36,935 nucleotides of DNA from Acidobacteriaceae bacterium. GTDB lineage: Bacteria > Acidobacteriota > Terriglobia > Terriglobales > Acidobacteriaceae. Positions 5,372 to 28,126 of this stretch are shown here, in pieces. The stretch is from NCBI GenBank assembly GCA_049696575.1, contig JBAVUB010000592.1:1-36935 (forward strand). Reading direction: 5' to 3'. A program made the position numbers and the translations under genes. Under the pieces are notes generated by a model. It ran no database searches and had not been told where the DNA came from. It saw nothing but the letters and a program-made list of their open reading frames with translations. Numbering within the stretch: the first letter of the stretch is position 1; each line of letters begins with the position of its first letter.

Positions 5372-6598
5372 ATGGGCATCAGCGCGGACCAGAACGCGTG
5401 GCGTGGCGAGAGCATTGGGAATTCGGATGCCCTGCTGGACCCTTCCCGGCGCGCTTTTCTGCGCGGGGCGGGCTTGCTGATGGCGGAGACGATCCTTCGC
5501 GAGGCGGGAGCCGCTGGAGAGCCGGGGACGCTCGCGGCATCCGGTGACAAGACGATCCTCGTGGTGGTTGGCGGCGTGCGCCGGGCAGAGACATTCTCAC
5601 GCGACGGTCTTGCGAACATCCCGCATCTGGGCGGCGATCTGTTTGCGCAGTGTCTGTTTTATCCGCACACGCGGAACGAGGGCGTAACCGCGCATTTCAA
5701 TGCGATCTCGAGCATTCTTACCGGGAACTGGCAGCGGGTGGACGACTGGGGCAAGCTGGCTCCGACCACGCCCACGCTCTTTGAGCAGTTTCGCCGGGAG
5801 CGGAAGGCAGACCGCAGCGACACCTGGGTTGTGGCCAGCAATAAGGCGCTGACGAGTCTAATCGGGGCGAGTTCGGCGGCGGGATACGGGCCGGAGTACG
5901 GCGCGAATGTTGTTTTTCCGAAGCAACTCATGCTGACGGCCGTGGTGGATGCGATACGCAGCGGGCGCACAGCGGTGATGGCGGATCGCGCCAAGGTGGA
6001 AGCGGAACTGGAGAGCGTAATTGCGGGAGCCAACTATGAAGGGCTGGGCTGGACCGTCTTCGATGCCGCCCAGTCTCTGGATCCGCGCGCGAAGGCGACC
6101 ATCGAGACAGCGATCGCGAGCTTTGTGCGCAGCGGCGGGCCGACCAGTGGTGATGAGCTCACGTTTTTCATGACGCGGGAGATCATGTGCAAATTCTCGC
6201 CGCGGGTGCTGGTGGTTGCGTTGTCCGACGTTGAAGTTGCGCATTTCGGCTCGTATGCGATGCATCTGGCGGGAGTCAGAACCGCCGACCGGCTGGTATG
6301 GCAACTGTGGAATGAGGTGGAAGCGAATCCCGATTACAGGGGCAGAACTACGATGCTGATCCTTCCGGAGTTTGGGCGGGATCCCGATGGTTCGTCGACG
6401 AATGGGTTTTTCAATCACCGGGCTAATGACGACTCGACGCGCGATACATGGATGATGGCGCTGGGTGCGGCCGTGGAGAAACCCGACGTAGTGGAACGAC
6501 CGATTCGCCACGTGGACGTTTGCCCGACGCTGGCGAGCCTGCTGGGATGCAAGCCGATGGAGACCCAGGGGAGACGACTCGATGAATTTCGGGTGTAG
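5372..6598 (+). CDS. Tat-exported DUF1501-like / alkaline-phosphatase-superfamily protein (A1), function unknown
   Basis: 408 aa. An SD (GAGGAGAGGA) precedes the ATG and the twin-arginine motif is SRRAFLRGAG. Blocks VVVGGVRRAETF, DVEVAHFG, ILPEFGRDPD and FNHRAND resemble DUF1501/sulfatase-like cores by eye. Paralog of 25721..26914. Confidence 0.8.
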   Translation: MGISADQNAWRGESIGNSDALLDPSRRAFLRGAGLLMAETILREAGAAGEPGTLAASGDKTILVVVGGVRRAETFSRDGLANIPHLGGDLFAQCLFYPHTRNEGVTAHFNAISSILTGNWQRVDDWGKLAPTTPTLFEQFRRERKADRSDTWVVASNKALTSLIGASSAAGYGPEYGANVVFPKQLMLTAVVDAIRSGRTAVMADRAKVEAELESVIAGANYEGLGWTVFDAAQSLDPRAKATIETAIASFVRSGGPTSGDELTFFMTREIMCKFSPRVLVVALSDVEVAHFGSYAMHLAGVRTADRLVWQLWNEVEANPDYRGRTTMLILPEFGRDPDGSSTNGFFNHRANDDSTRDTWMMALGAAVEKPDVVERPIRHVDVCPTLASLLGCKPMETQGRRLDEFRV

Positions 6599-6627
6599 CT
6601 GACGGGACCGCGTCCGGAGACGTTTTG

Positions 6628-7938
6628 ATGGATGAAGCCATGACGGGAGAGAACGCATATCCCACGGAACTCGAGAGGGTGCTGCAACAAGGGGTGCTGA
6701 CGCGGCTCCCGCTGACGTTTCTTCCGTTCGTCAACCAGCAGCTTCATCAGTGGGAGTATCTGTTTCCGAACGAACGCAACGCGGTGGAGCGGCTGCTGGT
6801 GTACGTAGCCAGCCTCAGCGATGAGGATTCCGCTGCGCTGTTTCGGGATGTGTTCGCGGTGCAGGAGAAGATTGGTGTCCGACACTGGCACTTTTCCACC
6901 AACGAACAGACGATCGAGAACTCCTCGGAGCTGGCGCGGTCGCCGTACTTTCAGGAGTGGAGACAGGCGGTGCAGGCGGTATTCGACGCGGCCGACCGCC
7001 ATGCCCGGGAGATGCACGGAACGCCTGCGGCATCGCGGCACCGGCTCGTGTTGCTGGAATTTCCGAGGACACTACCATTCGACCCGGCAACGGTATGGGC
7101 TCGCTGGCAGGGCGCCGGCAAAGTGGTGCCTATGGATCGGAACTCGGTCGGGTCGGGAGCCGGGACTCTGGCAACGCTGCTCCTGGGTACGCCGCCAGGG
7201 TCCGCGGGTGCGTTTGGGGGGCTTTTGAGGGCAGCGCGCGGCCAGCCCGCTGTGCATGCAGATGCGTGGGTAATCGATGCGGGCCGAGAGCTGATCGATC
7301 CTCTCGTATCGCCGGAGAGCGCGGGTGGTTCCACTCTTCTGTTGAGCTGTGGCCGATTGGAATCCTTTCGGCAGAGCTTCTCGCATGAGATGAATACCAT
7401 GCGCAAAGACCTGACCGATGCCGATGCGGTGTTCGATCGGTTGCGCAAGGTGGATGTATCGGCCTGGTGTCCCCCCGAGGTTGCGGGGGACGCGGCGCTG
7501 CGTGAATTTGTGCGCTCGGTTTATCTGTCAGGAAACGGGGCGGTAATTTTCGGCAATTCGTTTGTGGAGTGGGCGGCTTCGGAGGCGTTCCGCCGGGCGC
7601 GGCCAACGCTGCTGGCGGCGCGGTTCGGCGTGCGGAGCAAGCCGAAACCTTTTACCGGAGTTGCCGTGTTCGAGAACCAGGATCAGGTGAATCCGCTTCC
7701 GGCCGTCGACGATTGCGAAGGCAGTGCGCTGGATGCGCAGATCCTGGCTCTTTATATATGGAGGGCCGCGGGCCGCTACGCCGAGTACCAGAACTCAACG
7801 GTTTGCGTGTGCATCGCCGAGAGCCTGGCACAGGCGTATGTGATCGCTCCGTCCGACTTTCGTCTTGCAGCGGAGCCCGAACCAATTGCACCGGACCGGC
7901 TCGGGAGCAAGCTCCTCGAGTGGTTTGCGCAGGCGTAG
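6628..7938 (+). CDS. Uncharacterised protein B1 (no signal peptide), partner of A1
   Basis: 436 aa. GGAGA lies 8 nt upstream of the ATG at 6628; the track start at 6625 is a TTG one codon earlier. Composition is protein-like. It is colinear with 26918..28126 (LP..F.P...., FPNER.AVE, SGNGAVIFGNSFVEWAASEAFRRA...ARF). I recognise no known domain. Confidence 0.75.
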   Translation: MDEAMTGENAYPTELERVLQQGVLTRLPLTFLPFVNQQLHQWEYLFPNERNAVERLLVYVASLSDEDSAALFRDVFAVQEKIGVRHWHFSTNEQTIENSSELARSPYFQEWRQAVQAVFDAADRHAREMHGTPAASRHRLVLLEFPRTLPFDPATVWARWQGAGKVVPMDRNSVGSGAGTLATLLLGTPPGSAGAFGGLLRAARGQPAVHADAWVIDAGRELIDPLVSPESAGGSTLLLSCGRLESFRQSFSHEMNTMRKDLTDADAVFDRLRKVDVSAWCPPEVAGDAALREFVRSVYLSGNGAVIFGNSFVEWAASEAFRRARPTLLAARFGVRSKPKPFTGVAVFENQDQVNPLPAVDDCEGSALDAQILALYIWRAAGRYAEYQNSTVCVCIAESLAQAYVIAPSDFRLAAEPEPIAPDRLGSKLLEWFAQA

Positions 7939-8062
7939 TTCCGGGCGTGGGAGACGCGCACACCAGAGCGGTCCGGGCCGCGCAGAGGCGTCACCCCTGG
8001 TCGTACAATGGACGTTGTCGCGTGTTCGTGAAGCGTGCCGGAGGGTACACGGTCGAACAGCC

Positions 8063-9745
8063 ATGACGAGGGAGCGAATGGACGCAACCGCGCGTCCGCC
8101 TGAGGGGATCGGTTCACATTCAACGCCTGTCGAGGAAGGGCGAGCGAGTTGTCGCCTTCTTCGATTGGTGGCGATCACCTTGGTTATTCCGATGCTGTGG
8201 GTTGCGGCAGGTGCGCGGGGACAGGAGTCAGCGACAATCCACGGTACGGTGCGCGACGTGGCTGGCGCTCCGGTTGGTGACGCACGGGTGAGGCTGGATC
8301 ATGGCGGCACGCCGGCCGCCGAAACCAGAACAAGCGCCGATGGAGACTTCACATTCTCCGGAGTGGCGCCTGGGTCTTACACGGTGATCGCGGAAAAGTC
8401 CGGTTGGCTGGCCGCGCAAACGAGCATCAGTGCTGATGGCTTGCAAAGCCAGCGCGTGGATTTGAGGATGCACATGGCCAGCGTTGAATCATCCTCTTCG
8501 ACCCCGAGCGGGATGGAGTTTGCCGACGAGCCAAATTTCACGATCGCTGCGGTGACGGACTGGACGGCGGCCGGCGGCCATGGCTCGGACACGGTGCTGC
8601 GAGCAAGCGAGGCGCTCAATCGAGAAGCGATCAGCCTGAAGCCAGAGGCGAAGGCTCAGCCCCCCGGGCCCGCGACGGAAGCGAGTGAGGAGAAAGCGCT
8701 GCAAGCCTCGCTGGCGAAGGCTCCCGAGCAGTTTGCAACGAACTACGCTCTGGGTGCGTTCTATCTGGCAGCCGCGAGGAATAGCGATGCTGTTCCACCG
8801 CTGGAGGCTTCATATCGTATCCGTCCGGATGATTTTGCGAATGAGCTCGACCTTGCGGAAGCTTTGCAGGGCGCAGGGGACATCGCCGGTGCACGCAAGC
8901 ACGTGGGTAACCTGATGGCACGCGGCGAAAATGCCGACGTGGATCGGCTTGCCGGCGAACTGGACGAGAAACTCGGCGACTCACTGACGGCCGTAAAGGA
9001 GCTGGAGCGCGCAGTGCACCAGGATCCCAGCGAACGGAATTATTTCGAATGGGGCTCCGAACTTCTGCTCCATCGCGCCGTGTTACAGGCGAAAGAGGTG
9101 TTCGCGGCGGGGGTGAAGGCGCATCCGGAGTCGGAACGCATGCTAACTGCGCTGGGGGCGGCGCTGTTTGCGGGCGCGCTATACGACGAAGCCGCTCAGC
9201 GTCTCTGCGCGGCCTCGGACCTTAATTTCGACGATGTGGATCCATACCTGTTCATGGGCCGAATCGTAGTCGCAGTGTCGAGCCCGATGCCGTGCGTCCT
9301 CCCCCGGCTGAAGCGATTCTCGGAAAGGCAACCGGAGAATCCGCTGGCCAGTTATTACTATGCGATGGCGATCTGGAAGCAAAACGGTCAGCCGGTAGAT
9401 AAGTCCTCGGTGGCGCCGGTTGAGGCTCTGCTGCACCGAGCGGTCATTCTGGATAACAAATGCGCTGTGGCATGGCTTCAACTGGGCGTTCTCAGTTATT
9501 CGCGCAGAGATTATCAGGATGCTGTCGATTTCTTTCGGCGCGCGACTTCAGCCGACCCACAATTCGGTGAGGCTCATTATCGGCTGGGTATGGCCTATGA
9601 TCGTATGGGCGAACGCGACCAAGCGAAGGCGGAACTGGATCTGCACGAGAAGATCGAACGAGAGCAAAAGGAAAAAGTGGAACGGCAGCGGCGCACCATC
9701 AAACAGTTTCGAGTGTTGGATGCCGGCGAACCCTCCTCACCGTAG
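8063..9745 (+). CDS. CarboxypepD_reg-domain + TPR protein (TPR1)
   Basis: Start chosen at the ATG at 8063, in frame within track ORF 7865..9745 and just ahead of the hydrophobic signal LLRLVAITLVIPMLWVAAGARG. The CarboxypepD_reg-like sandwich is TIHGTVRDVAGAPVGDARVRL...DGDFTFSGVAPGSYTVIAEKSGW. Next comes the FTIAAVTDWTAAGGHGSD motif, then TPR repeats. The C-terminal ~300 aa are homologous to TPR2. Confidence 0.8.
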   Translation: MTRERMDATARPPEGIGSHSTPVEEGRASCRLLRLVAITLVIPMLWVAAGARGQESATIHGTVRDVAGAPVGDARVRLDHGGTPAAETRTSADGDFTFSGVAPGSYTVIAEKSGWLAAQTSISADGLQSQRVDLRMHMASVESSSSTPSGMEFADEPNFTIAAVTDWTAAGGHGSDTVLRASEALNREAISLKPEAKAQPPGPATEASEEKALQASLAKAPEQFATNYALGAFYLAAARNSDAVPPLEASYRIRPDDFANELDLAEALQGAGDIAGARKHVGNLMARGENADVDRLAGELDEKLGDSLTAVKELERAVHQDPSERNYFEWGSELLLHRAVLQAKEVFAAGVKAHPESERMLTALGAALFAGALYDEAAQRLCAASDLNFDDVDPYLFMGRIVVAVSSPMPCVLPRLKRFSERQPENPLASYYYAMAIWKQNGQPVDKSSVAPVEALLHRAVILDNKCAVAWLQLGVLSYSRRDYQDAVDFFRRATSADPQFGEAHYRLGMAYDRMGERDQAKAELDLHEKIEREQKEKVERQRRTIKQFRVLDAGEPSSP

Positions 9746-9769
9746 AACCACGATTTTCTCTCGCGCGAC

Positions 9770-11551
9770 TCAGGCACGACGTGGCTTCATCGAATCTACG
9801 ATGCCGGCGCCTTCGCGAATGGTGAGGATCTGATTGGCGGCAATCCGGGTGAAGCGCTCGATCTTCTGAGTGGTCGGCCACTTCACCTCGATCGCGTCCA
9901 CGATTTCCGCGGTCCCCAGGCCGAAATGCAGGCGCAGGTCATTCTGTGACATCACGCTGGTCCCGCTGCTCACTTCGTCCATCTGGATATGCTTGCCGTT
10001 GATCACGCGGGCACGCGCGCCAATCGCCGTCCGGTTGCATTGGGTGCCGATCAGCCTGAGTTTGATCCAGTTCTGTTTGTTGCCGCCTATATTGTGCAGA
10101 AGAGAAGGAAGATCGTTCATGTTCAGGATGAGGACATCTATGCCGCCGTCGTTGTCGTAATCACCGAACGCGGCGCCGCGGCTTGAGAATTTCTCGGTAA
10201 TACCAGGACCCATCTCCGCGGAGACATCTCTGAATTTCCCGTTTCCAAGATTTTTGTAAACGAGACGCGGATTCCTGAACGATTCGCCGAAGTTGTACCT
10301 GTCGACTTCGGGATAGACGTGACCATTGACCTGCACAATGTCGGGCCAGCCGTTGTTGTCGTAGTCGATAAAGCCACAGCCCCAGGCTACATATTTATTG
10401 TTAATGCCGATACCGGAGTTGAAGGATAACTCGGTAAAAGTTCCGTCTCCGTTGTTATGGTAGAGGTCGGACGTATCGTCGGCGAAGTTCGTCTTGAAAA
10501 TATCGAACCAGCCGTCGCAATCGTAATCGGCCACACCCAGACCCATACCAGCCTGTTCGTGGCCGTCGGAGTTATAGGCACATCCGGCCATCACCCCAAC
10601 TTCACTGAAGGTGCCGTTATGGTTGTTCTGCAGGAACATAGCGGGCTCGGAGTCAACGGCAATATAGATGTCAGGCCATCCATCGTTATCGAAATCATAA
10701 GACACTGACGTGATGGAGTAACGCGGGCCCGGTTTCAAAATGCCAGCCTTCTCCGATACGTCGGTAAAGGTTCCGTCGCCATTGTTGTGGTACAGGATGT
10801 TAGTATCGCCAGGCAGGCCACGCGGACCGCACATGGTTGGCATACCCTTCCACTGGCAGAAGGCGGCCTCATCGCGGGAAGGCGGATGATCGGGATCGAG
10901 CGCGACGAAGTTACAGACGAAAAGGTCGAGATGTCCATCCCGATCGTAATCGAGAAACGAGCAGCCCGTGCCCCAGCGGCCTCTCTCCTGGTACAAGCCG
11001 GCTTTCTTTGTGACGTCGGTAAAAGTGCCGTCGCCGTTGTTATGGAAGAGAATGTTACGGCCCCAAAAAGTGCAGAACAGGTCGTCCCAGCCATCGTTGT
11101 CGTAGTCGCCGACGCACACACCGGTTTGCCAGCCGCTGCGGCCGAGGCCGGACTTCGCCGTGACGTCGGTGAACGTGCCGTCGCGGTTATTTTTGTATAA
11201 GTGCGTGGTGGGGGCTTCTCCTGGCGGCCAACGTTCATTGAGCCGGCTGCCATTCGTCAGATAGATGTCAAGCCAGCCATCGTGGTCGTAGTCGAAGAAA
11301 GCTATGCCGCTCCCCTTGGTCTCGACAATGATGCGTTTGGTATCAACCCCACCCCAGACGTTGGGGATGGTCAGGCCTGCTTGCTGGCCCACGTCGATAT
11401 AGTGGACCGGGGAGGTCGGGGGAGGAGTGGTCTCGGCCCGAACCACGCCGGAGTTTCGCCATCGCCAGAGCGGAGTGGTAAGAACTTCGAGCAGCGTGCT
11501 GCCCAGCACGAACATGGATGAGCCCAGAAATCGTCGCCGCGGTGTGATCAT
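9770..11551 (-). CDS. CRTAC1-family FG-GAP/VCBS repeat protein with ASPIC/UnbV C-terminal domain
   Basis: Start set at the ATG at 11551 (MITPRRRFLGSS, Tat-like), which removes the overlap with the upstream gene. It has repeated DYD.DGW.D / HNNGDGTFTDV units. The C-terminus NRTAIGARARVINGKHIQMDEVSSGTSVMSQNDLRLHFGLG...IEVKWP is ASPIC/UnbV-like. Confidence 0.88.
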   Translation of the reverse strand: MITPRRRFLGSSMFVLGSTLLEVLTTPLWRWRNSGVVRAETTPPPTSPVHYIDVGQQAGLTIPNVWGGVDTKRIIVETKGSGIAFFDYDHDGWLDIYLTNGSRLNERWPPGEAPTTHLYKNNRDGTFTDVTAKSGLGRSGWQTGVCVGDYDNDGWDDLFCTFWGRNILFHNNGDGTFTDVTKKAGLYQERGRWGTGCSFLDYDRDGHLDLFVCNFVALDPDHPPSRDEAAFCQWKGMPTMCGPRGLPGDTNILYHNNGDGTFTDVSEKAGILKPGPRYSITSVSYDFDNDGWPDIYIAVDSEPAMFLQNNHNGTFSEVGVMAGCAYNSDGHEQAGMGLGVADYDCDGWFDIFKTNFADDTSDLYHNNGDGTFTELSFNSGIGINNKYVAWGCGFIDYDNNGWPDIVQVNGHVYPEVDRYNFGESFRNPRLVYKNLGNGKFRDVSAEMGPGITEKFSSRGAAFGDYDNDGGIDVLILNMNDLPSLLHNIGGNKQNWIKLRLIGTQCNRTAIGARARVINGKHIQMDEVSSGTSVMSQNDLRLHFGLGTAEIVDAIEVKWPTTQKIERFTRIAANQILTIREGAGIVDSMKPRRA

Positions 11552-11616
11552 CGGAAGGAAGCGGTACGCCTTTCTATCATCGTGAAGTCTATGAGCTAAA
11601 GCAGGTGCCCTGCAGG

Positions 11617-13350
11617 TTATTTCAATTGCACTTTCGGGAAGGGATGCGGCACGATGCCTGTTCCCTCCTTCACGGCGATTATTGTATCGACTGGCACGTC
11701 GGTAATTTTGTCGGTTTGACCGCTGGGCCACTGAATGACCAGCGAATCGATCTTCGTGTGCCTGCCGAGCCCGAAGTGAATGCGCGGATCGCTGGCGGAC
11801 ATGTAGCTGCCGCCCCCTTTGGCCTGGTCCACGCGGACCAGATCGCTTGCGGTCAGCTTCAGAGTCGAGCCGATTCCGTCGCGATTGGACTTTGTCCCGA
11901 TCAGGAGTATTTCCAGCCAGTGGTTGCCGGTGCCGCCTTCGTTGCGCATCAGTTCGGGGTAGTCTCCGCGACAGTTGACCACGAAACCGACGTTGCCGTC
12001 ATTGAGAAAGTCGGCGGTCGCCAGTCCGCGACCGACCATCGGTCGATTGAAGTCCGGTCCCAACTCATCCGAAGCCTTCTCGAAGTGGCCGCGTCCCAGG
12101 TTATGCCACATCAGCAGTGGCTCCTTATAAGTGACCATGCTGTGGTACAGGTTGACGTTGGTGACCATGGCTCCGTTGGCCTGGACAATATCCGGCCAGC
12201 TATCGTTGTCGTAGTCGATGAATTTCGCGGACACGCCGCTGAGAAACATAGCCTTGTTGCCGATTCCGGAATTGTAAGTAGCGTCGGTAAACGTGCCGTC
12301 TCCGTTGTTGTGATAAAGGCGATTCAGCTCAAAGTCGAGGTGGGTGATGTAGGCGTCGAGCAGGCCATCGGCGTCTACGTCGGCGGCGTCGATGCCCATT
12401 CCGGCTTCGTAGCGCCCGTCTTCGCTGGCGGCGAGGCCGGAAATCAGCGAGATATCGGTAAATGTTCCGTTGCCGTTGTTCTGGAAGAGAAAATTAGGCC
12501 AGGTGTCGTTGGCGATGGCAATGTCAGGCCAGCCGTGACCGAAGAAGTCGGCGGTCACCACGCCCATCCCCTTGGCCTCCGGAATACCTATGCCGGATTT
12601 CTGGCTGACGTCGGTGAAGGTTCCATCGTGATTGCTGTGGTAAAGCCTGATGTGCTGGCCGTGATAGTCGTTGGGATTGCAGTAAGAACGATATCCCGGG
12701 GCTTTCTCTCCGCACCATAGGTTGTTCCTGGGAGTCCAATCCAGGTAATTGAGCACGACCAGGTCGAGCCAACCATCCTTATCGAAGTCTACCCAGGCGG
12801 CGCTGGTAGACCACTGGCCTTCGTCGGCCACGCCGGCCTTTGCGGTCACGTCAGTAAAGGTGCCGTCGCCGTTGTTGTGATAGAGAATGGCGCGGCCGTA
12901 GCCGGTGACGTACAGATCGGGGTAGCCGTCGTTGTCGTAGTCGCCGACTGCCACACCCTGCCCATAGTGGCCCTCGCCTCCTACGCCGGTCTTTGCAGTC
13001 ACGTCGGTAAAGGTGCCGTCGCCGTTGTTGTGGTAGAGAGCCGAGCGCAGAGGATGGTCGGGTTTATAGGCGTCGGTTGCACCGGTCTGGACCAGATACA
13101 GATCCATCAACCCATCCTGGTCGTAATCGAGCCACCCCGCACCCGTGCCCATGGTTTCCAGGTAGTATTTTTCGTCGGTCTCTGTGGAGTCCTGCATGAA
13201 CGTGATTCCCGCGGCCTTACGAATGTCGGTGAAGCGGACCGTCGATGGCTGCGGCTTCGAGGCCTGCTGGGCGCCGGTGGCTTTGATCAACAGAACGCAG
13301 GCGCCAGCGCCGATGAAGAGGATCGCGGCGTTGCGGAGCGGACGAATCAT
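11617..13350 (-). CDS. CRTAC1-family FG-GAP/VCBS repeat protein with ASPIC/UnbV C-terminal domain
   Basis: 577 aa with a signal peptide. It has WLDYDQDGLMDLYLV and repeated YHNNGDGTFTDVTAK units. The C-terminus is NRDGIGSTLKLTA...GGSYMSASDPRIHFGLG...LVIQWPSGQ. The start overlaps the upstream stop (ATGA at 13347..13350). Confidence 0.9.
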   Translation of the reverse strand: MIRPLRNAAILFIGAGACVLLIKATGAQQASKPQPSTVRFTDIRKAAGITFMQDSTETDEKYYLETMGTGAGWLDYDQDGLMDLYLVQTGATDAYKPDHPLRSALYHNNGDGTFTDVTAKTGVGGEGHYGQGVAVGDYDNDGYPDLYVTGYGRAILYHNNGDGTFTDVTAKAGVADEGQWSTSAAWVDFDKDGWLDLVVLNYLDWTPRNNLWCGEKAPGYRSYCNPNDYHGQHIRLYHSNHDGTFTDVSQKSGIGIPEAKGMGVVTADFFGHGWPDIAIANDTWPNFLFQNNGNGTFTDISLISGLAASEDGRYEAGMGIDAADVDADGLLDAYITHLDFELNRLYHNNGDGTFTDATYNSGIGNKAMFLSGVSAKFIDYDNDSWPDIVQANGAMVTNVNLYHSMVTYKEPLLMWHNLGRGHFEKASDELGPDFNRPMVGRGLATADFLNDGNVGFVVNCRGDYPELMRNEGGTGNHWLEILLIGTKSNRDGIGSTLKLTASDLVRVDQAKGGGSYMSASDPRIHFGLGRHTKIDSLVIQWPSGQTDKITDVPVDTIIAVKEGTGIVPHPFPKVQLK

Positions 13351-19729: not shown

Positions 19730-20047
19730 GGTGAAAACCGGAAGCCGGCGGACGAGGGCATCATAGCACCGGGGAAAACGCGGAGAACAAACCCTCAACC
19801 TCAGGCTTTGTTTCTCCCCTCGACGCTAAAGATCAACGGGCGTGCCCGGCCGAACCTGTGGAAAACGGAGTTGGTCACCGCCCTGCGTGCCGCCGGAATA
19901 CGGATGTTGCGTTATGCTCTCAACCGGTGCGCAGCCTTTGGTTTCGGGGTTTGGCTCCGCGGAATTCGCGCAGATCGACCTGACGGTCGAAAAAAACCTA
20001 CAACTTTGGGTTGACAAAAGGGCGGTCGAGGAACTAGCTTGTTGCCG

Positions 20048-20061: not shown

Positions 20062-20078
20062 TAATTTTGCGACGTAAA

Positions 20079-20198: not shown

Positions 20199-23100
20199 AT
20201 GGGCTGTGACCGCAAGCTATTCAGCAGATTTGGGATCGTCTCCGCTGTCTTCATTACTCTCAGTCTGGTCTTCGTCCCCGCTCGGTCAGCGCGTGCGCAG
20301 GTGGACGAAGGCTCCATTACCGGCATCGTTCAGGATACGACTGGCGCAGTCATTCCGAATGCTCAGGTGACCCTGCTGAACATCGACCAGGGCATCACCT
20401 TGAACACCAAGACGGACAACGCCGGTTCGTACACGTTCTCACCGGTCAGAATCGGGCACTACACGGTTTCGGTAACGGCGCAGGGCTTTTCCAAGACCAC
20501 GCAGTCGAACGTGACGGTTCAGGTGGCACAGACGCTGCAGGTGAATCTGCAGCTGAAGCCGGGCGCGAGCACGGAAACCGTCTACGTGAACACGGCGCCG
20601 CCCCTGATGCAGACCCAGGAAGCTTCAGTCGGCCAGGTCATCGGGACCCAGGAAGTAAACAATCTGCCGCTGAACGGACGCAATTTCACGTTCCTTGCGC
20701 AGCTGGGAGCCGGCATGCAGACTCCGCAGGCCGACACCCGCGGCAACGCTGCATCGGGCGCGTTCTCGGCCAACGGTCTCCGTCCCGCGCAGAACAATTA
20801 CCTGCTGGACGGCATCGACAACAACTCCAATGCGGTCGACTTCCTCAACGGCACCAACTACGTCATTCTGCCGCCGGTGGACGCGATTCAGGAGTTCAAG
20901 GTGCAGACGGCGGACTTCAGCGCTGAACTGGGACGCGCAGGCGGCGCGGTGCTGAATGCAACCATCAAGTCCGGCACCAACAGCATTCACGGTGCAGGGT
21001 GGGAGTTCTTCCGCAACGACAAGCTGGACGCGGCCGACTATTTTGAGAACAATACCGGCATCAAGAAAGGCGAGCTGCGGCAGAACCAGTTCGGCGCCGA
21101 CATCGGCGGTCCGATCATGAAGAACAAAATCTTCTACTTCGGCGATTACGAAGGCTTCCGCCGTGTGCAGGGGACGGCCGAGAACGGCGATGTGCCGACT
21201 TCACTGGAGCGCAGCAGCGGGTACACGAACCTTTCGCAGATTCTCGGGTTTAATGATGGCACGACCCGAACCGATGCTCTGGGCCGTGCGATTCAGAAGG
21301 GCACGATCCTCGATCCTGCGACTACGCGATTCGTTGCCAGTGGAGCCGTGGATCCGGTTTCCGGACGGACCAACAGCAGCGGCAGCGACGCTTATGTGCG
21401 CGATCCGTTCAGCACGGTTTGCGGGCCGGGCACGGCGACCTTCACGACGGCAAACTGCAGCGACCTGAACATGCTTCCGTCTGCGCGGATTGATGCGAAT
21501 GCTGTCAAGGTGCTGAATCTGTACCCGGCGCCCAACTCCGGTACCCAGGTCTATGCCAGCAGCCCCGCGTTGTTCGAGCATCGCAATCAATTCGACATCC
21601 GCGGGGATGTGAACCCGAGCCAAACGGACCAGATCTTCGCTCGCTTCAGCTACTCCGACGATCCGATCTATATTCCGGGCATCTTCGGCGGCATCGCTGA
21701 TGGCGGTTCTTTCTACCAGGGGATTCAGACGGCGAAATCGGCTCAGGCCGTGGCTGGATATACCCACGTCTTTACACCTCTCACCACCAACCAGATACGC
21801 GGCGGCTTTGCTCACCTGCACACCACCCGGTACGGACCGGAGGGCGCGGTAAATGGTATTCCCGCGCAGTTCGGCATTCAGGGCATACCCCAGGGACAGG
21901 AGAACGGCGGCCTGCCGGGCTTCGGAATCTCGAACCTGGCGACCCTGGGAAGCAATAACTTCCTGCCTTCGGATGAAGTTAGTCAAACCCTGCAGGTGAC
22001 CGACGACTTCACGAAGATCTACGGCAGCCACAGCTTCAAGATGGGGATCGAGTACCAGAACGTAAAGTTCTCCACCCTGCAGCCCGCGTGGTCGCACGGG
22101 CAGTTCGATTACAACGGCACATTTGTCGATATTCCCAACAAGGGCAATACCACCGGCGGAATCGCGCAGGTTTTGCTGCCCCCCACGGCTGCCCCAGCGA
22201 CGATTGACGGCGCGCCGAATCCGAACGGCTTCAACTATTCGGGTGGGACGGATTTTGTCTACGCCTCGAATATCAACAAGACCTACGACCAGAAGATGTA
22301 CTTCGCGTCGTATTTCCAGGATGACTGGAAAGTAACTCCCAAGCTGACCATCAACCTTGGGTTGCGCTGGGATAACTTCGGTCCCATTAACGAAACCAAT
22401 GGCGGACAGGCCAACTTCGTCCCCTACGCGATTCCCGGGAAGAACATTGGAGCGGCAACGTACATCATCCCGGCTACCGGGAAGGATAATCGGACGCTCT
22501 CCACCGGACATCCGGCCTACACCAACTATGGAGGGGCCTCTGTTCCTGCAGCGGCTGGGACCTGCCAGGGAGTCGGCTGTTTCGGTCTGCCGGACCTTCT
22601 GGCAAAGGACGGAATCACGCTGGATGTAACGAACAAATACGGTCAGGGGTTGATCGAGGTGGTGAGGGCTAACCTTGCCCCACGTGTCGGTGCGGCCCTC
22701 GAGATCACGCCCAAGTTTGTGGTGCGCGGTGGCGTCGGGCTCTTCTTCAATTCCTTTGAGAACCAGGGGTATGGGCCGAACATCGGTGAGAACTATCCGT
22801 TCGTGTACAACCTGCAATACGGTATCCAGTCCAACCCAGCCGGCCACAGTATTGACTCCCAGGTGGCGCCGGTTAGCTATAACTCCCCCTATGCCGGATG
22901 CGCCACATCCGGACCGGGCGGAACCGCCAGCTTGGAATCGGGATTCTCCTGCATCCCGCTGACCCCCAGCGCAGTGAACGCACTGGGACTCGAGCTGGAG
23001 GGACTGCAGTTCGATTATCAGACTCCGCATACGTTGGAAAGCAACCTGACGCTCCAGTATGCGATCACCCACTCCTTAACCGCCCAGGCGGCTTACGTGT

Positions 23101-24134
23101 ATACGCATGGCGCTAACCTGCAGGGGCTTCCGGGATGGCAGAACGTCACGCAGATTCTGCCTGCGGGTATCGACACCAAAAACTGCGGTAAGTATGCCGT
23201 GTTCCCGGGTGGAAGCTGTGTGCCCTACAAGGACTTCGGCAGTGGCTGGGCCGCAACCTTCGGCCAGAGCAATTACAACGCTCTCCAGACGAAGATCGAG
23301 GAGCAGTTCTCCCACAATGCGACCTTCCTGCTTACCTACACCTACGCGAAAGCTCTGTCGGATGCTGGCGACCAGCTCAATGGCGGGTCAACCGGCGGTT
23401 GGCGTGCATTCTCTATTCCGGGTCTTGGTCCCCGGTTCGATTACAGCCTGGCGGACTACGATCTTCGTCAGGTCCTGCACTTCAGTGGCGGATATCAGCT
23501 GCCCTTCGGAAAAGGCCAGCAGTACATGAACCACGGTGGAATTGGAAATGCCGTGTTGGGTGGCTGGGCGACCAACTGGATTCTCACCCTGCAAGGCGGA
23601 CAGCCGCTCAACTTCGGTTGTCCGACGGGAACAGCGTCCGGCCCTGGTTGCAACGATCTCCTTGTATCGGGTCAGAGCGCGCAGCTGGGAATCAAGTCGC
23701 ACGTTATCGACGGCGCGCCGCGGCCGTTCTGGGTGAACAACGCCAAGGCATTCAACCAGCCTTGCCAGTTGTCGGATGCGGGCGGCCCGATTGCTCCGGA
23801 TCCCTCTTCCGTTGCGGGATGCGTGCCGCTCAACGGAGCGGCTGCTCTTGGTCCGCCGCCCGGCCAGATTCCCGGACCTGGTTTCCACCGGATCGACTTC
23901 TCCCTCTTCAAGAATTTCCAGGTCACGGAGCGGATTTCAACTCAGTTCCGCGCCGAGTTCTTCAACATCGTCAATCACCCCAACTTCAATGCTCCGGGTT
24001 TCGGAGGCAACGGTGTGGTGGCCATCGGCGGGTCGGGGAACTATACCGATCCTCACTTTGGTGAAGTTGGATCGACGCGCGATGCTCCTTACGATCCGCG
24101 ACAGATTCAGTTCGCTTTGAAGACGTATTTCTAA
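20199..24134 (+). CDS. TonB-dependent outer-membrane receptor with N-terminal CarboxypepD_reg domain
   Basis: 1311 aa. An SD (GGAGGG) precedes the ATG and a signal peptide ends ARSARAQV. The CarboxypepD_reg block is GSITGIVQDTTGAVIPNAQVTLL...AGSYTFSPVRIGHYTVSVTAQGF. The plug-like block is NNLPLNGRNFTFLAQLGAG. A long beta-barrel-like Gly/Asn/Tyr-rich body follows, with a terminal ...QFALKTYF (C-terminal Phe). Confidence 0.9.
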   Translation: MGCDRKLFSRFGIVSAVFITLSLVFVPARSARAQVDEGSITGIVQDTTGAVIPNAQVTLLNIDQGITLNTKTDNAGSYTFSPVRIGHYTVSVTAQGFSKTTQSNVTVQVAQTLQVNLQLKPGASTETVYVNTAPPLMQTQEASVGQVIGTQEVNNLPLNGRNFTFLAQLGAGMQTPQADTRGNAASGAFSANGLRPAQNNYLLDGIDNNSNAVDFLNGTNYVILPPVDAIQEFKVQTADFSAELGRAGGAVLNATIKSGTNSIHGAGWEFFRNDKLDAADYFENNTGIKKGELRQNQFGADIGGPIMKNKIFYFGDYEGFRRVQGTAENGDVPTSLERSSGYTNLSQILGFNDGTTRTDALGRAIQKGTILDPATTRFVASGAVDPVSGRTNSSGSDAYVRDPFSTVCGPGTATFTTANCSDLNMLPSARIDANAVKVLNLYPAPNSGTQVYASSPALFEHRNQFDIRGDVNPSQTDQIFARFSYSDDPIYIPGIFGGIADGGSFYQGIQTAKSAQAVAGYTHVFTPLTTNQIRGGFAHLHTTRYGPEGAVNGIPAQFGIQGIPQGQENGGLPGFGISNLATLGSNNFLPSDEVSQTLQVTDDFTKIYGSHSFKMGIEYQNVKFSTLQPAWSHGQFDYNGTFVDIPNKGNTTGGIAQVLLPPTAAPATIDGAPNPNGFNYSGGTDFVYASNINKTYDQKMYFASYFQDDWKVTPKLTINLGLRWDNFGPINETNGGQANFVPYAIPGKNIGAATYIIPATGKDNRTLSTGHPAYTNYGGASVPAAAGTCQGVGCFGLPDLLAKDGITLDVTNKYGQGLIEVVRANLAPRVGAALEITPKFVVRGGVGLFFNSFENQGYGPNIGENYPFVYNLQYGIQSNPAGHSIDSQVAPVSYNSPYAGCATSGPGGTASLESGFSCIPLTPSAVNALGLELEGLQFDYQTPHTLESNLTLQYAITHSLTAQAAYVYTHGANLQGLPGWQNVTQILPAGIDTKNCGKYAVFPGGSCVPYKDFGSGWAATFGQSNYNALQTKIEEQFSHNATFLLTYTYAKALSDAGDQLNGGSTGGWRAFSIPGLGPRFDYSLADYDLRQVLHFSGGYQLPFGKGQQYMNHGGIGNAVLGGWATNWILTLQGGQPLNFGCPTGTASGPGCNDLLVSGQSAQLGIKSHVIDGAPRPFWVNNAKAFNQPCQLSDAGGPIAPDPSSVAGCVPLNGAAALGPPPGQIPGPGFHRIDFSLFKNFQVTERISTQFRAEFFNIVNHPNFNAPGFGGNGVVAIGGSGNYTDPHFGEVGSTRDAPYDPRQIQFALKTYF

Positions 24135-24147
24135 ACGAAGATGGACC

Positions 24148-24193: not shown

Positions 24194-24258
24194 CCTCTCT
24201 GCGGTACCATGTTCTGCGGAGCAGCTGGCTAGCCGACGCAGCAACTGTGGAGGAGACG

Positions 24259-25680
24259 GTGAGCAGGGGTTGGCGTTGTCGCATCGGGTGCTGCGTTCTG
24301 TGCCTGATCAAGATCTCCGTCCTGAACGCCGGCGCGCAGGATCCCCAAAAGCAGAAGCTTGATCGGGAATACCAAGCCGCAGTTGCGGACTATGAGGGTG
24401 GCCGGTACGCCCAGGCGTCCGATGAGTTGCAACACCTGCTGCCATATGCGCCGAGGAGTTACGAACTGCACGAGCTCCTGGGGATGGTCGATGTTGCACT
24501 GGGCGAGAGCGACCAGGCCGTCAAAGAGCTAAAAACCGCCGTCCAGATCAAGCCGGAGCTCGCCGAAGCTCGGGTGAATCTGGGTGTGACGCTGGTTCAC
24601 GCCCGACAGGCGACCGCGGCTGAGGAGCAGTTTCGGAAGGCGAGCCTGCTGGACGCAGGCAACTACGACGCTCCGCACAATCTCGGCGAGTTGTTGGTTC
24701 AGAGAGGCAAGATCGCCGAGGCGCAGCCGTGCCTGGAGCGGGCCTGGCAAATCCACCCTGCTTCGTATGACAACGCCTACGACCTTGCGATGGCCGATTT
24801 CATGTTGGGGAAACTGGACGAGGCCCGCCTGGTGGTGAGCGGCCTGGTGAAGCTGAAGGATACGGGGGAGCTGCGGAACCTTCTGGGCCAGATCGACGAG
24901 AAGGATGGAAAATACGTCGATGCGGCGAATGACTATGAAGCCGCCGCCCACCTCGATCCCAGCGAGGACAATATCTTTAACTGGGGAAGCGAAATGCTGC
25001 TGCATCGGACGTATGAGCCGGCCATTACGATCTTTGAGGATGGGGTTGCGCGCTATCCCCGTTCGCCGCGGATGCAGATCGGGATGGGGCTGGCTTATTA
25101 CTCTCGCGGCAAGTACGACGACGCAATTAAGGCGCTGATTACCGCAGCCGATCTGAATCCAACCGATCCGCGCTGTTATGTTTTCCTGTCGAAGGCTTAC
25201 AACAGCTCTCCACTGCAGGCGGACGAAGTTACGCAGCGGTTCAAACGCTATGCTGAGCTGGAGCCGGGCAACCCGCTTGCGCAGTACTATTATGCGGTGA
25301 GTTTGTGGAAGGGCAGGCGGGTCGAGGATCCGGGAACGGATCCGGCCACTGTAGAAGGGCTGCTGCGAAGGGCGATTGAGCTGGATGACTCGCTTGCAGA
25401 GGCGCATGTGCAGCTGGGCGATCTGTATGCGGACGAGCGAAAATACAAGGAATCGATCCCGCAGTACGTGCGCGCACTGGAACTGGATCCAAACCTTGCC
25501 GACGCGTATTACCGGCTGGGTACGGACTTCGTGCACACCGGGGAGAAAGACAAGGCGCAGAAGGAATTCGCGATCTACCAGAAGGTGCGCGCCGAGCATC
25601 TGGCGGAAGCAGAGAAGGAACGGGCCGAGGTACAGCAGTTCGTGTATTCAGAGAAGTCGGAGTCGGCGAGCAGGCCCTGA
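24259..25680 (+). CDS. Secreted TPR protein (TPR2), homolog of the C-terminal part of TPR1
   Basis: Start proposed at the GTG at 24259, with GGAGG 5 nt upstream and the signal SRGWRCRIGCCVLCLIKISVLNAGA/QDP. The track start at 24181 lies inside the hairpin. TPR repeats run throughout. Blocks shared with TPR1 are DPSE.N.F.WGSE.LLHR, NPLA.YYYA...WK and A.YRLG. Confidence 0.82.
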   Translation: MSRGWRCRIGCCVLCLIKISVLNAGAQDPQKQKLDREYQAAVADYEGGRYAQASDELQHLLPYAPRSYELHELLGMVDVALGESDQAVKELKTAVQIKPELAEARVNLGVTLVHARQATAAEEQFRKASLLDAGNYDAPHNLGELLVQRGKIAEAQPCLERAWQIHPASYDNAYDLAMADFMLGKLDEARLVVSGLVKLKDTGELRNLLGQIDEKDGKYVDAANDYEAAAHLDPSEDNIFNWGSEMLLHRTYEPAITIFEDGVARYPRSPRMQIGMGLAYYSRGKYDDAIKALITAADLNPTDPRCYVFLSKAYNSSPLQADEVTQRFKRYAELEPGNPLAQYYYAVSLWKGRRVEDPGTDPATVEGLLRRAIELDDSLAEAHVQLGDLYADERKYKESIPQYVRALELDPNLADAYYRLGTDFVHTGEKDKAQKEFAIYQKVRAEHLAEAEKERAEVQQFVYSEKSESASRP

Positions 25681-25720
25681 GCGAGGGAAAGAAGCTGCAT
25701 TCGCCCCAGCGAGCGAGGCA

Positions 25721-26914
25721 ATGGATCGGAGCTGGTTCAGAGAACGATGCGGGAACGGTGGCCCGGAAGGGAACGCCGGATTTTCGTCGACGACGGCCCG
25801 CGCCCTGAGCCGTAATCGCCGCGAGTTTCTTCGCGATGCCGTCGGCCTTGCGATTGGATCGACGCTGATCGGTGCAAGCCCATTCCTCCACGGCGAAGCC
25901 ATCCGCAAAAAACGTAAGATCGTCGTTATCACGTTTGGGGGTGGAGCGCGCGACCAGGAGACCTTCGCGCCCGAAGGTCAGGAGAACATCCCTCACATGC
26001 TGCGGGAGTTGATCCCGCAGTCCAGCTTCTTCTCCCATGTCGTGAACCGAGGAATCCTCGGCCACTATGTGGCGACCGCCAGTCTGGCCACGGGCGTTTA
26101 CGAAACGCTCAACAACTTCGCTGCTGTACCTCCACAACACCCCACCGTTTTCGAGTATTTTCGCCGCGACCTGAAGCGTCCCGCCACAGACACCTGGGTA
26201 GTGGCTCCCAGTAACGGCTTCAATCGCATCGGCGAAAGCAACTGCCACGCCTACGGCGCGGGTGCCACGGTCATTCTCCCCAAGCACCTGCTGGCTGCAA
26301 CCCAGCCCGAAGGCGCGGACCTCGATCATCTGCTGCGCGACAATTATGAAAACCCGCTCTACACCCCCGTGCTTGGCGGCGGCGAGTTCGAGCTGCAGCA
26401 GCTGGATCATATACTCCGTCTGTCCGTTGCCGACTTCAACGGCCACGCCCGGACGCTCTCCAGTCCCGATGAGCTTTCGGTGTACATTGCGAAGCGTCTC
26501 ATGCAGCAGGAAGCGCCGAGCCTGCTCTGGATCACGATGCATGACATCGATGTCGCCCATTCTGGCGCCTACTCCTTATATATAGAAGGCATCCGCCGCA
26601 CCGACCGGCTCTGTGCGGAGATGTGGCAGGCGGTCCAGTCCAATCCGGAATATGCCGGCAACACGACCATGTTCATCCTTCCCGATTTCGGGCGAGATGC
26701 CGACCTCGACGCCGGAGGCAATGGGTTCCAGCATCATCGCACCGGCGATCCGGCAAGCCGCACCACCTGGATGATGGCCCTCGGCGCCGGAGTCAGGCCC
26801 GGCGTGATCTACGACGAGCCGATGCAGTCGATCGATCTGGTGCCGAGTCTGGGCGCGATCATGGGCTTCTCGCCGGCACAAAGCCAGGGCAAACCCATCC
26901 CGGAGCTGATTTGA
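25721..26914 (+). CDS. Tat-exported DUF1501-like / alkaline-phosphatase-superfamily protein (A2), paralog of A1
   Basis: ATG at 25721, the only in-frame start after the TPR2 stop; the track ORF start at 25376 overlaps TPR2. The Tat motif is SRNRREFLRDAVG. Blocks shared with A1 are NIPH, HPTVFEYFRR, DTWVVA, DIDVAHSG, NPEYAGNTTMFILPDFGRD and TTWMMALGAGV. Confidence 0.82.
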   Translation: MDRSWFRERCGNGGPEGNAGFSSTTARALSRNRREFLRDAVGLAIGSTLIGASPFLHGEAIRKKRKIVVITFGGGARDQETFAPEGQENIPHMLRELIPQSSFFSHVVNRGILGHYVATASLATGVYETLNNFAAVPPQHPTVFEYFRRDLKRPATDTWVVAPSNGFNRIGESNCHAYGAGATVILPKHLLAATQPEGADLDHLLRDNYENPLYTPVLGGGEFELQQLDHILRLSVADFNGHARTLSSPDELSVYIAKRLMQQEAPSLLWITMHDIDVAHSGAYSLYIEGIRRTDRLCAEMWQAVQSNPEYAGNTTMFILPDFGRDADLDAGGNGFQHHRTGDPASRTTWMMALGAGVRPGVIYDEPMQSIDLVPSLGAIMGFSPAQSQGKPIPELI

Positions 26915-26917
26915 TTC

Positions 26918-28126
26918 ATGCAGCCTCGCGATCTCACCAGCGCGACTTTCACCGCTTACCCGCCGCAGGCGCGGGTCCTGGCGGTGGCGCATCTGGATTT
27001 GCTGCGACAACTTCCCCCTGGATATGTGCCGTCGCTGCTGCGCGAGATCCTCTCGTACGATTTTGCGTTCCCGGCTGAGCGGGTCGCGGTGGAGAAGGAG
27101 CTGGCTGCGCTCTCCGCGCTGGATGAGCGACAGCGGGCGGAGTGGTTCCGCGGCTTCGCACAGCTTTCTCTGTCGCCCGACCTGGAGGACTTCGACTGGG
27201 TGAATCATCCAGCGCAGTTTCAGGAGAAACAGTCGGCATGGCTCTGGAGCAGTCATCAACTGGATGCCTTTCGGGCGGCGGCGACGGACTTTGGCACACG
27301 GTTGCAGAATGCGACGCCTGCCGAGCCACCGCCGATGCGGCGACTGGGCATCGCCATCATCGGCAAAGATGTGGCGACCTGGAACGAGCCTCTGTTTCGG
27401 AATCTTCGCGGCCAGGGTACATGGTTCACGCAAATCAACCCGGACAATGGCGTCCGTATTTTGCTCGATGCTGCTGCTGAGCGCGCACGAGCTCATCCTG
27501 AGTCGTACGCGCACTGGTATATCGACGGTGGGATTCCGTCGGATTACGACAAGGCTCTGACCTGCATCTCCTGGACCGCGCTTGAGCCGCTGCGGACCGG
27601 CCTTCTGCGAAGGATGCAGACGGAGATCAATCGGCCTGGCATGGGCCCGGAACAGCTGCGGACGTGGCTCGCGCAGCTCATGCCCGGCGAACTGGGTGTC
27701 GCGAGTTCCACGGATCCGGTTCTCACCCGTTTTCATGTGAGCCTGTTTACCGAGGGGTCGGGAACACAGATTTTCAGCACGACCTTCGCGCAGTGGACCG
27801 CGCGCGAAGTGCTCCGCCGCGCTCAGGCGCTCACCGTCGTGGCGCGCTTCACGCCGCGGCAGCGACAGCGCCCTATGAATGAGCTGCTCATCGGCAACGA
27901 CGCCACACCTGAGCTCGACCCAACAGGTTCGCTGATCGATGCCGACATGGCCGCCTGGTATCACTGGCTCAACCAGCAACGGCTTCCTGGTTACGAACAG
28001 TCGTCGTTTATCGCCTGGTTCGAGAATCACAATCAGGCGGTGGCGATCGGTCCCACGCTTCCGCGCGGGGCGCAGTCGGATTCGACGGTGGGTCTGGAAA
28101 AGCTGCTCGCTCTTGCTGCGGGCTGA
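26918..28126 (+). CDS. Uncharacterised protein B2 (no signal peptide), paralog of B1
   Basis: 402 aa. The ATG lies 3 nt after the A2 stop. Composition is protein-like (W/F/Y-rich). It is colinear with B1. The long antisense ORF 26576..28030 is Arg-rich junk. Confidence 0.78.
   Translation: MQPRDLTSATFTAYPPQARVLAVAHLDLLRQLPPGYVPSLLREILSYDFAFPAERVAVEKELAALSALDERQRAEWFRGFAQLSLSPDLEDFDWVNHPAQFQEKQSAWLWSSHQLDAFRAAATDFGTRLQNATPAEPPPMRRLGIAIIGKDVATWNEPLFRNLRGQGTWFTQINPDNGVRILLDAAAERARAHPESYAHWYIDGGIPSDYDKALTCISWTALEPLRTGLLRRMQTEINRPGMGPEQLRTWLAQLMPGELGVASSTDPVLTRFHVSLFTEGSGTQIFSTTFAQWTAREVLRRAQALTVVARFTPRQRQRPMNELLIGNDATPELDPTGSLIDADMAAWYHWLNQQRLPGYEQSSFIAWFENHNQAVAIGPTLPRGAQSDSTVGLEKLLALAAG

Follow-up and report, generated by a model that had tools for sequence, protein, structure and literature searches.

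Positions 1 to 36,935 of contig JBAVUB010000592.1, from the assembly of an Acidobacteriaceae bacterium (GCA_049696575.1) and read on the forward strand, are what we call the window. It contains two pairs of neighbouring genes, A1-B1 and A2-B2, in which A codes for a predicted substrate of the twin-arginine translocation (Tat) pathway and B for a partner protein of an uncharacterised family. An earlier note, made from the sequence of the window, had described two deeply diverged modules, each composed of a TPR protein, A and B, on either side of an operon of FG-GAP and TPR genes. Our analysis leads to another view of what was duplicated and of what works together: the A-B pair is the duplicated unit, and the functional unit is larger, since it comprises a TonB-dependent outer-membrane barrel (TBDR) predicted to be of the Oar class, a TPR module, one or more CRTAC1-like propellers and A-B itself. 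We infer that the window represents one conserved cell-envelope locus of Acidobacteriota rather than two separate modules, and that its core is an obligate, translationally coupled pair.

The divergence between the two copies was quantified with BLASTP. A1 and A2 are 33% identical over 416 columns (E = 4e-74), B1 and B2 are 25% identical over 414 columns in a single colinear alignment (E = 1e-16), and TPR1 and TPR2, the TPR genes lying next to the two pairs, are 36% identical over their last 357 C-terminal residues (E = 9e-66). With such identities the copies are old paralogues and not an assembly duplicate, as had been supposed from a comparison by eye. The shared blocks recognized at that time are all present in the alignments: NIPH, DTWVVA, D.(E/D)VAH.G, ...ILP(E/D)FGRD and TWMMALGA between A1 and A2, and LP..F.P, FP.ER.AVE and GNG/GSG...F..W.A.E..RRA between B1 and B2.

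With one genome scanned for each species, B turned up in at least 560 genomes; gene neighbourhoods were counted in the best 80 of them, all from Acidobacteriaceae or Terriglobales. A2 is located directly upstream of B2 in 78 of these 80 genomes, the gap being mostly 0-5 nt, and a ribosome-binding site is found inside the 3′ end of A; in the window, a GGAG stands there at the end of A2. The TBDR and TPR2 genes precede A2-B2 in 63 of the 72 genomes for which enough upstream DNA was present, and the commonest layout is TBDR>TPR2>A2>B2>(A1>B1>)(GH2>), where GH2 stands for a beta-galactosidase gene. In 15 of the 80 genomes A1-B1 comes directly after A2-B2, the two pairs sharing an operon that has just one TBDR-TPR pair at its head, and a single operon TBDR-TPR-A2-B2-A1-B1-GH2 is encountered in many genomes; other layouts are GH2<TPR<TBDR< followed by A1>B1>FG-GAP-fusion>, and convergent A2-B2 and A1-B1 pairs. 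In 29 of the 80, a GH2 gene is located less than 10 kb from B2, usually straight after B2 or B1, and FG-GAP/ASPIC genes are near the pair in 22, while an alpha-galactosidase gene of family GH27 was seen near it in two loci (L049 and L089). In one lineage of Acidobacteriaceae (loci L002, L003 and L004), B2 is followed by the gene of a 1040-residue protein without Pfam match (11548-14670 on the plus strand in L002) and then by that of a VWA-domain protein.

When scanning was repeated with very distant B sequences as seeds, it brought 80 loci from soil metagenomes, of 67% GC content, whose B proteins share only about 28% identity with B1 and whose A proteins share about 43% with A1. There again, A is directly upstream of B in all 35 informative loci. 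The pair is flanked by a TBDR (37% identity), by the C-terminal TPR module (42%) and by an FG-GAP/ASPIC protein of the FG1 type (about 50%), the FG1 orthologue being encoded directly upstream of A-B; the layouts are either TPR<TBDR< followed by FG1>A>B>, or TBDR>TPR>A>B>. The A proteins of this clade are closer to A1 than to A2 in 48 cases out of 48, and its B proteins closer to B1 than to B2 in 75 out of 75. A and B are thus congruent in their assignment to type 1, which implies that they were duplicated together and that type 1 is the one with the wide distribution. Another cluster of B proteins comes from Bryobacteraceae. The functional linkage proposed in the earlier note is borne out by the A-B association, kept both in related genomes and in the distant clade; A and B matched no characterised family either (see below), so that neither of the two outcomes by which that note would be overturned came about.

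What the survey does not sustain is the composition of the unit. One could still imagine that the window holds two independent and self-contained modules of TPR, A and B, and that the FG-GAP operon and the TBDR have nothing to do with them: within the window there is indeed a TPR gene beside each A-B pair, and TPR1 and TPR2 have the 357-residue module in common. This explanation is already contradicted by the neighbourhoods, and we hold it to be highly improbable. Both pairs stand behind a single TBDR-TPR in the 15 genomes mentioned above, and in the other genomes examined a TPR1-type gene was never found directly 3′ of B1, where 8 of these 15 have GH2. FG-GAP/ASPIC and TBDR genes are more than mere surroundings: they flank A-B in loci L005-L008 and in the distant clade, where they are conserved partners of the pair although B itself has kept only about 28% identity. 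TPR1, in contrast, is no conserved partner of A1-B1. Its architecture differs from that of TPR2, consisting of a signal, a CarboxypepD_reg domain and the TPR module, and proteins of its type adjoin FG-GAP genes elsewhere (loci L040, L049 and L052), not B1. Given this company, the window looks like a rearranged single operon, with the FG-GAP block placed between the two pairs.

No family of Pfam or NCBIfam was matched above threshold by A1 or A2, and the database names of the A and B clusters are all 'hypothetical protein'; the statement of the earlier note that A and B have no described family therefore stands. Its designation of A as 'DUF1501-like' has to be revised. By fold, A belongs to the alkaline-phosphatase (AP) superfamily, but the match to DUF1501 (PF07394, for which the Pfam gathering threshold is 27 bits) is limited to A2, at 14.6 bits (E = 0.019) and over the C-terminal part only, and none was obtained with A1 or with five A proteins of the distant clade. 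Distant A proteins give weak sub-threshold matches to the Pfam Metalloenzyme model, and these, like the DUF1501 match, cover the region of the metal-binding strand and the C-terminus that aligns with sulfatase. No genuine DUF1501 protein to be aligned with A was present in the roughly 1.5 Mb of retrieved loci.

The superfamily assignment comes from an AlphaFold model of A, based on an alignment of 27 sequences, with a predicted template-modelling score (pTM) of 0.70. A Foldseek search of the PDB with this model gave 37 matches at E < 1e-3, all of them to members of the AP superfamily (sulfatases, LtaS/LtaP, AP and NPP), with template-modelling (TM) scores of about 0.4. Searches of the PDB by sequence, with single proteins and with profiles of A and B, brought noise apart from one marginal profile alignment of A to a sulfatase, in which 'TTMLILPEFGRD' of A falls on the metal-binding strand 'nTivifgDHGR', and 'vDvcPTla.llG' of A on the C-terminal sulfatase motif. 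Judged from the modelled fold, the AP superfamily is the level at which A is safely placed, and the only one. Among 144 A sequences from three clades, the positions conserved at 97% or more include R27, G67, G68, R70, H108, T117, G118, E138, D261, E262, D286, H291, D337, D339 and H349. Five of them, D286, H291, D337, D339 and H349, are candidate metal ligands in the C-terminal part, and E/D333 aligns with a sulfatase Asp; this mapping of catalytic positions was made by sequence and predicted secondary structure, not on a solved structure. A type I (S1) sulfatase was considered and ruled out, because A has no formylglycine motif and no match to Pfam Sulfatase or to NCBIfam. A is thus a member of the AP superfamily whose site is conserved without being canonical; it is no sulfatase, and membership in DUF1501 is not demonstrable.

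The N-terminus of A has the features of a Tat signal, namely a twin-arginine motif, a weakly hydrophobic h-region and a cleavage site of the A-x-A type: SRRAFLRGAGLLMA in A1, NRREFLRDAVGLAIG in A2 and RRRDALRFLAACMADWWLP..AFAQ in the distant clade. Pattern matching by regular expression and the N-termini themselves indicate that none of the three clades has lost the twin-arginine motif (at least 97% of the 144 sequences have R27), and A is accordingly predicted to be a Tat substrate. A also evolves slowly, with identities of 66-88% where B has 58-90%.

B is a protein of 400-440 residues. Neither B1 and B2 nor distant B relatives gave anything above threshold in Pfam, NCBIfam or PADLOC; together with the negative results for A1, A2 and their distant relatives, this excludes a known defence system and any named family. 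By sequence, B has no relative in the PDB, and when 1.84 billion representative proteins were searched with a profile, only 764 clusters were found, so that the family is narrow. In 183 B sequences, the longest hydrophobic run within the first 45 residues does not exceed 7, from which we conclude that B has no signal peptide. The structural model of B, a confident one (predicted local distance difference test score, pLDDT, of 87; pTM 0.87), consists of a helical domain (residues 1-132) and an alpha/beta domain (residues 143-392). Foldseek found no close structure for it in the PDB, the best match having E = 6e-3 and a TM score of about 0.3; nearly all of these weak matches are nevertheless to the AP superfamily, including the non-catalytic YejM/PbgA domain.

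Could B then be a distant relative of A itself? A first comparison of the two families with hhalign, using smaller alignments, gave no signal. With larger alignments, the two families aligned colinearly over the whole alpha/beta domain, with a global P of 0.0026 and a probability of 4.7%; the pairings include W200 of B with W152 of A, '..RRAQ..TVVARF' of B with '..SPRVLVVALSD' of A, and 'DAD..WY.W' of B with 'ADRL..LW' of A. Among 30 block-shuffled controls, the global score was reached by one and the local score by none. In this alignment B is devoid of all the candidate metal ligands of A, and it has no conserved His or Cys. B is probably, at slightly better than an even chance, a degenerate AP-like protein without metal ligands.

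As for the partners, the TBDR matches CarboxypepD_reg (PF13620, E = 8e-22) and PF25183 (E = 3e-183), while its Plug domain is borderline: the excised region scores 23.4 bits, the cut-off being 23.9. The combination of an N-terminal CarboxypepD_reg extension, a Plug and a beta-barrel has been described for Oar (PMC6434023), and its domain content identifies the TBDR as a predicted Oar-class protein. The TPR2 protein matches generic TPR models only; it has no match to SusD or RagB in Pfam and NCBIfam, and no lipobox. The locus was also considered as a SusC/SusD polysaccharide utilisation locus, a candidate that was rejected for want of a SusD-family lipoprotein beside the barrel. The CarboxypepD_reg domain, by which the Oar subclass is defined, is also attached to the soluble TPR1: the domain as it stands in TPR1 (8063-8800) and the N-terminal extension of the TBDR (20199-21000) have 32% identity along 106 residues, a similarity that does not decide whether TPR1 arose by fusion of a TBDR N-terminus to a TPR gene. 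FG1, FG2 and the FG-GAP fusion are all CRTAC1-like (PF13517, E = 1e-47 to 1e-49; PF07593, E = 1e-16 to 1e-20). The signal of FG1 is of the Sec type, not of the twin-arginine type, in the distant clade. The fusion gene is divergent from the TBDR gene here and in many genomes, and its architecture is kept elsewhere. Its AhpC/TSA (thioredoxin-like) domain, at residues ~888-1018, reads 'FWSTAAPAS' at the place where CxxC is expected and, from its sequence, appears to be redox-dead. GH2 belongs to the GalA type (NCBIfam NF041462, 1122 bits against a cut-off of 900).

How might these proteins work together? The conserved Tat signal of A, the absence of a signal in B, the tight coupling of the two genes, their constant adjacency and their joint duplication lead us to propose an A-B heterodimer that leaves the cytoplasm by Tat hitchhiking. 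Such export of signal-less subunits is established for other enzymes, e.g. PaoABC (PMC4273604; PMC10924467). In our scheme, A would be the catalytic subunit, a metalloprotein, and B a pseudo-enzyme subunit; both would assemble in the cytoplasm and be exported in the folded state through Tat, B riding on the signal of A. In the periplasm the dimer would work together with the Sec-exported TPR protein, the Oar-class barrel and the CRTAC1-like FG-GAP/ASPIC propellers, and would process a substrate imported through the barrel. The beta- and alpha-galactosidase genes that recur at the locus suggest a galactose-containing glycoconjugate: the most likely reaction would be the removal of an anionic ester group from it, after which the co-encoded galactosidases could degrade the rest. 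The pair was duplicated long ago, and a rearrangement would have put the FG-GAP block between the two pairs in the window. Paralogy, adjacency, the conserved partners, the fold class of A and the pattern of signal peptides are what the analysis shows; the complex, the hitchhiking, the catalysis, the substrate and the direction of transport are inferred. The scheme as a whole, a hitchhiking heterodimer that acts with the barrel on a galactose-containing substrate, we rate as somewhat short of an even chance. A bolder version is conceivable, in which A-B is the first heteromeric member of the AP superfamily, B being a degenerate paralogue of the catalytic A that lost both metal site and signal, and in which the hitchhiking dimer is handed by a dedicated TPR adaptor to the Oar-class barrel, the whole forming with the propellers a machine across the envelope, not described before and widespread in soil Acidobacteriota, that would either take up and process a substrate or secrete proteins in the manner of Oar; this version we consider rather unlikely.

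Several observations weigh against the proposed heterodimer and its substrate. The model of A is poor (pLDDT 61), and the first beta-strand of A ends in GG instead of the canonical Asp or Asp pair. The sulfatase signature is C/S-x-P-x-R-x-x-x-x-T-G; A has no C/S-x-P-x-R motif, the corresponding stretch being A-H-F-N-A-I-S-S-I-L-T-G in A1 and G-H-Y-V-A-T-A-S-L-A-T-G in A2, so that H108 occupies what we take to be the position of the formylglycine residue, i.e. of its Cys or Ser precursor. Without a first-strand Asp and a nucleophile, as far as sequence, predicted secondary structure and the general signature tell, A might bind its ligand and not catalyse. The AP-like similarity of B is weak (TM ~0.3), and one shuffled control matched its global hhalign score; no natural A-B fusion was found among the 150 best B representatives. 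Since GH2 is present at only about a third of the loci, the galactoside idea is thin. Finally, a crude mirror-tree analysis of 59 loci having all four genes (within L010-L089) gave a partial correlation of only 0.19 for A2-B2, as compared to 0.69 for B2-TPR2 and 0.52 for TPR2-TBDR. If real, the B2-TPR2 value would imply an encounter of B with the exported TPR protein beyond the cytoplasm, which fits co-export. This correlation may reflect either a contact between B and TPR or a mere rate artefact, and we do not use it as support.

Among the alternatives, one has to consider that B may be no subunit of a mature enzyme at all and instead serve as a cytoplasmic maturation factor or chaperone of A, active in Tat proofreading or in metal insertion, which would retain A until its cofactor is in place and would itself stay behind in the cytoplasm. 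B is signal-less in every clade, it strictly adjoins, and is coupled to, the gene of a Tat substrate, each A paralogue keeps a B of its own with congruent type 1 and type 2 assignments, and conserved His or Cys residues, which might hint at a catalysis of its own, are lacking in B: all this is what could be expected from a dedicated chaperone. The Tat chaperones that we know of, however, are small, with some 200 residues, and entirely helical, and B, with its 400-440 residues and an alpha/beta domain resembling the fold of A, is unlike them; moreover, its distances track those of the Sec-exported TPR protein most, if the partial correlation of 0.69 is real. A chaperone is thus an unlikely role for B, though one to be taken seriously. 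Another possibility concerns A, which may be catalytically dead, the locus being then a binding, adhesion or envelope-structural system built of TPR scaffolds, integrin-like propellers and pseudo-enzymes. The missing first-strand Asp and the lack of Ser, Thr or formylglycine at the nucleophile position would be explained in this way, the thioredoxin-like domain of the FG-GAP fusion is also without CxxC, and YejM/PbgA, matched structurally by A as well as by B, provides a non-catalytic precedent for the AP fold. But it would then be difficult to account for the dense set of invariant Asp, His and Glu at the C-terminal metal-site positions (D286, H291, E/D333, D337, D339, H349), for the slow evolution of A, and for its Tat signal, Tat export being typically used for cofactor-loaded proteins; we see little probability in a dead A.

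The direction of transport can be questioned as well. TonB-dependent transporters as a rule import their substrates, and to our knowledge Oar is the only one documented to do otherwise. The TBDR of the locus has the Oar architecture, the barrel, TPR, A and B genes are co-operonic in two distant clades, and several proteins of the locus have twin-arginine-type signals. A-B and/or the propellers might therefore reach the periplasm by Tat and then be secreted or displayed by the TBDR with the help of the TPR protein, much as Oar secretes the protease PopC in Myxococcus (PMC6434023). The general rule of import is against it, and glycosidases that bear export signals, presumably periplasmic and encoded in the same operon, fit glycan import better; the sequences themselves do not tell the direction, and we judge an outward barrel to be improbable. 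The scheme that we prefer remains that of an A-B heterodimer, co-exported by Tat, which would act on an imported substrate.

The genes of the window that were considered above are listed in Table 1. The open reading frames of the earlier note were all recovered in their places, with ATG 6628 as the most likely start of B1 as it had assumed (the frame itself opens at TTG 6625), and the minus-strand block 9770-19798 between the two copies does consist of FG-GAP/ASPIC and TPR proteins. The mechanical open reading frames of FG1 (9770-11731, minus strand) and FG2 (11617-13350, minus strand) overlap by 115 nt. Since the Tat-type signal of FG1 begins at a Met near 11554 (MITPRRRFLG), the most likely start of FG1 is there and not at 11731; the true FG1 gene would then be the shorter one, with no real overlap. 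Besides A1 and A2, the proteins that bear twin-arginine-type signals are GH2 GalA (TRRDLL), FG1 (MITPRRRFLG) and the FG-GAP fusion (SRRAVLKG).

Table 1. Positions, strands and main characteristics of the genes in the window
Gene	Position	Strand	Characteristics
GH2 beta-galactosidase, GalA type	1258..3810	-	Pfam GH2 domains; twin-arginine-type signal TRRDLL; frequent, not universal member of the locus
GH27 alpha-galactosidase (Melibiase_2)	3916..5100	-	Pfam E = 8e-73; occasional neighbour
A1	5372..6598	+	predicted Tat signal SRRAFLRGAG; AP superfamily; outside all Pfam and NCBIfam families
B1	6628..7938	+	signal-less partner of A1; uncharacterised family; GGAG 8 nt 5′ of the ATG
TPR1	8063..9745	+	signal peptide, CarboxypepD_reg and C-terminal TPR module of ~330 residues common with TPR2
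FG1	9770..11554	-	CRTAC1-like, FG-GAP and ASPIC/UnbV; twin-arginine-type signal
FG2	11617..13350	-	FG-GAP and ASPIC/UnbV; Sec-type signal
Large TPR protein, 849 aa	13347..15896	-	
FG-GAP fusion	15893..19798	-	FG-GAP, ASPIC/UnbV, thioredoxin-like domain (without CxxC) and TPR; twin-arginine-type signal
TBDR, predicted Oar-class TonB-dependent outer-membrane barrel	20199..24134	+	signal, CarboxypepD_reg extension, borderline Plug (residues 146-247), 22-strand-type barrel PF25183
TPR2	24259..25680	+	TPR protein with Sec signal; C-terminal ~330 residues are the conserved module
A2	25721..26914	+	predicted Tat signal NRREFLRDA; AP superfamily; paralogue of A1
B2	26918..28126	+	signal-less partner of A2; starts 3 nt past the A2 stop; GGAG within the end of A2

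On the 3′ side of the second copy (28877-36154) comes an unrelated set of genes, for an AtuA-family protein, a CitMHS transporter, a LysR regulator, a type-B carboxylesterase and a tannase/feruloyl esterase, which is not kept beside B2 in other genomes. Three small open reading frames, all on the minus strand (192-641, 28172-28573 and 36356-36775), would code for 133-149 amino acids each and have no Pfam match. An Rfam scan of the whole window for a riboswitch that would name a ligand gave no match, and the promoter and terminator scans did no better than on shuffled sequence.

In the literature on DUF1501, on DUF1800, on bacterial ASPIC/UnbV and on CRTAC1 in Acidobacteria, we found no functional study and no description of the cluster. 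The parts are known as such (the AP superfamily, Tat substrates, Oar-class barrels, TPR and CRTAC1-like proteins), while no description exists of the two families A and B or of their fixed association. In soil, Acidobacteriota rank with the most abundant bacteria, and little is known of the biology of their envelope; here is a locus, present in at least 560 species-level genomes, that holds two families missing from the curated libraries and brings together Oar-class barrels, TPR proteins, CRTAC1-like propellers and DUF1501-like Tat proteins, all of which recur in Acidobacteria, Planctomycetes and Bacteroidetes. From this compact set of five genes an A-B complex, a Tat-dependent export of B and a metal-dependent activity can be predicted. 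This makes it possible to test directly what the DUF1501-like branch of the AP superfamily does, and in which direction the Oar-class barrels of Acidobacteriota transport.

The closest known relatives of the arrangement are found in several quite different systems. DUF1501 proteins (PF07394) are sulfatase-like proteins with a Tat signal, whose function is not established and which are usually paired with DUF1800 or PSCyt/PSD proteins. A resembles them in its modelled AP-superfamily fold, in its twin-arginine signal, in the obligate uncharacterised partner encoded alongside, in having 'EFGR' where sulfatases have 'DHG', and in the weak match of A2 to the C-terminal part of the model. It differs by a score far below threshold (14.6 versus 27 bits, with no match for A1) and by the order of the genes, B following A instead of preceding it; B did not match the DUF1800 or PSD models. 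The S1 (formylglycine) sulfatases gave the best structural matches to A, the strand with the metal-binding residues and the 'D..PT....G' motif can be aligned with theirs, and they too occur in glycan-utilisation loci with TonB-dependent barrels. In contrast to them, A has His108 in place of the C/S-x-P-x-R motif, GG instead of DD after strand 1 and no Pfam Sulfatase match, and the locus contains no maturase gene (FGE or anSME). With the Oar-PopC and SusC/SusD loci our locus has in common an outer-membrane barrel with a CarboxypepD_reg extension and glycoside hydrolases in the operon, and the gene of an all-helical repeat protein (TPR) stands immediately 3′ of the barrel gene, as that of SusD does after SusC. 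The TPR protein is nevertheless outside the SusD family and without lipobox, and PopC-type proteases are absent. The periplasmic domain of YejM/PbgA, which the structural searches with A and with B both retrieved, is a precedent for the AP fold as a binding module; PbgA is, however, a single membrane-anchored protein involved in the regulation of lipopolysaccharide, without sequence similarity and in another gene context. There remain the Tat hitchhikers, such as the small and large subunits of hydrogenases, DmsAB and PaoABC. These are redox enzymes with complex cofactors, unlike A-B, whose complex and co-export are proposed here, and we know of no Tat hitchhiker described in the AP superfamily. 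Yet the genetic pattern is the same in both: a signal-bearing gene stands beside that of a signal-less partner, the two are tightly coupled, and the partner is conserved and duplicated together with the subunit that bears the signal.

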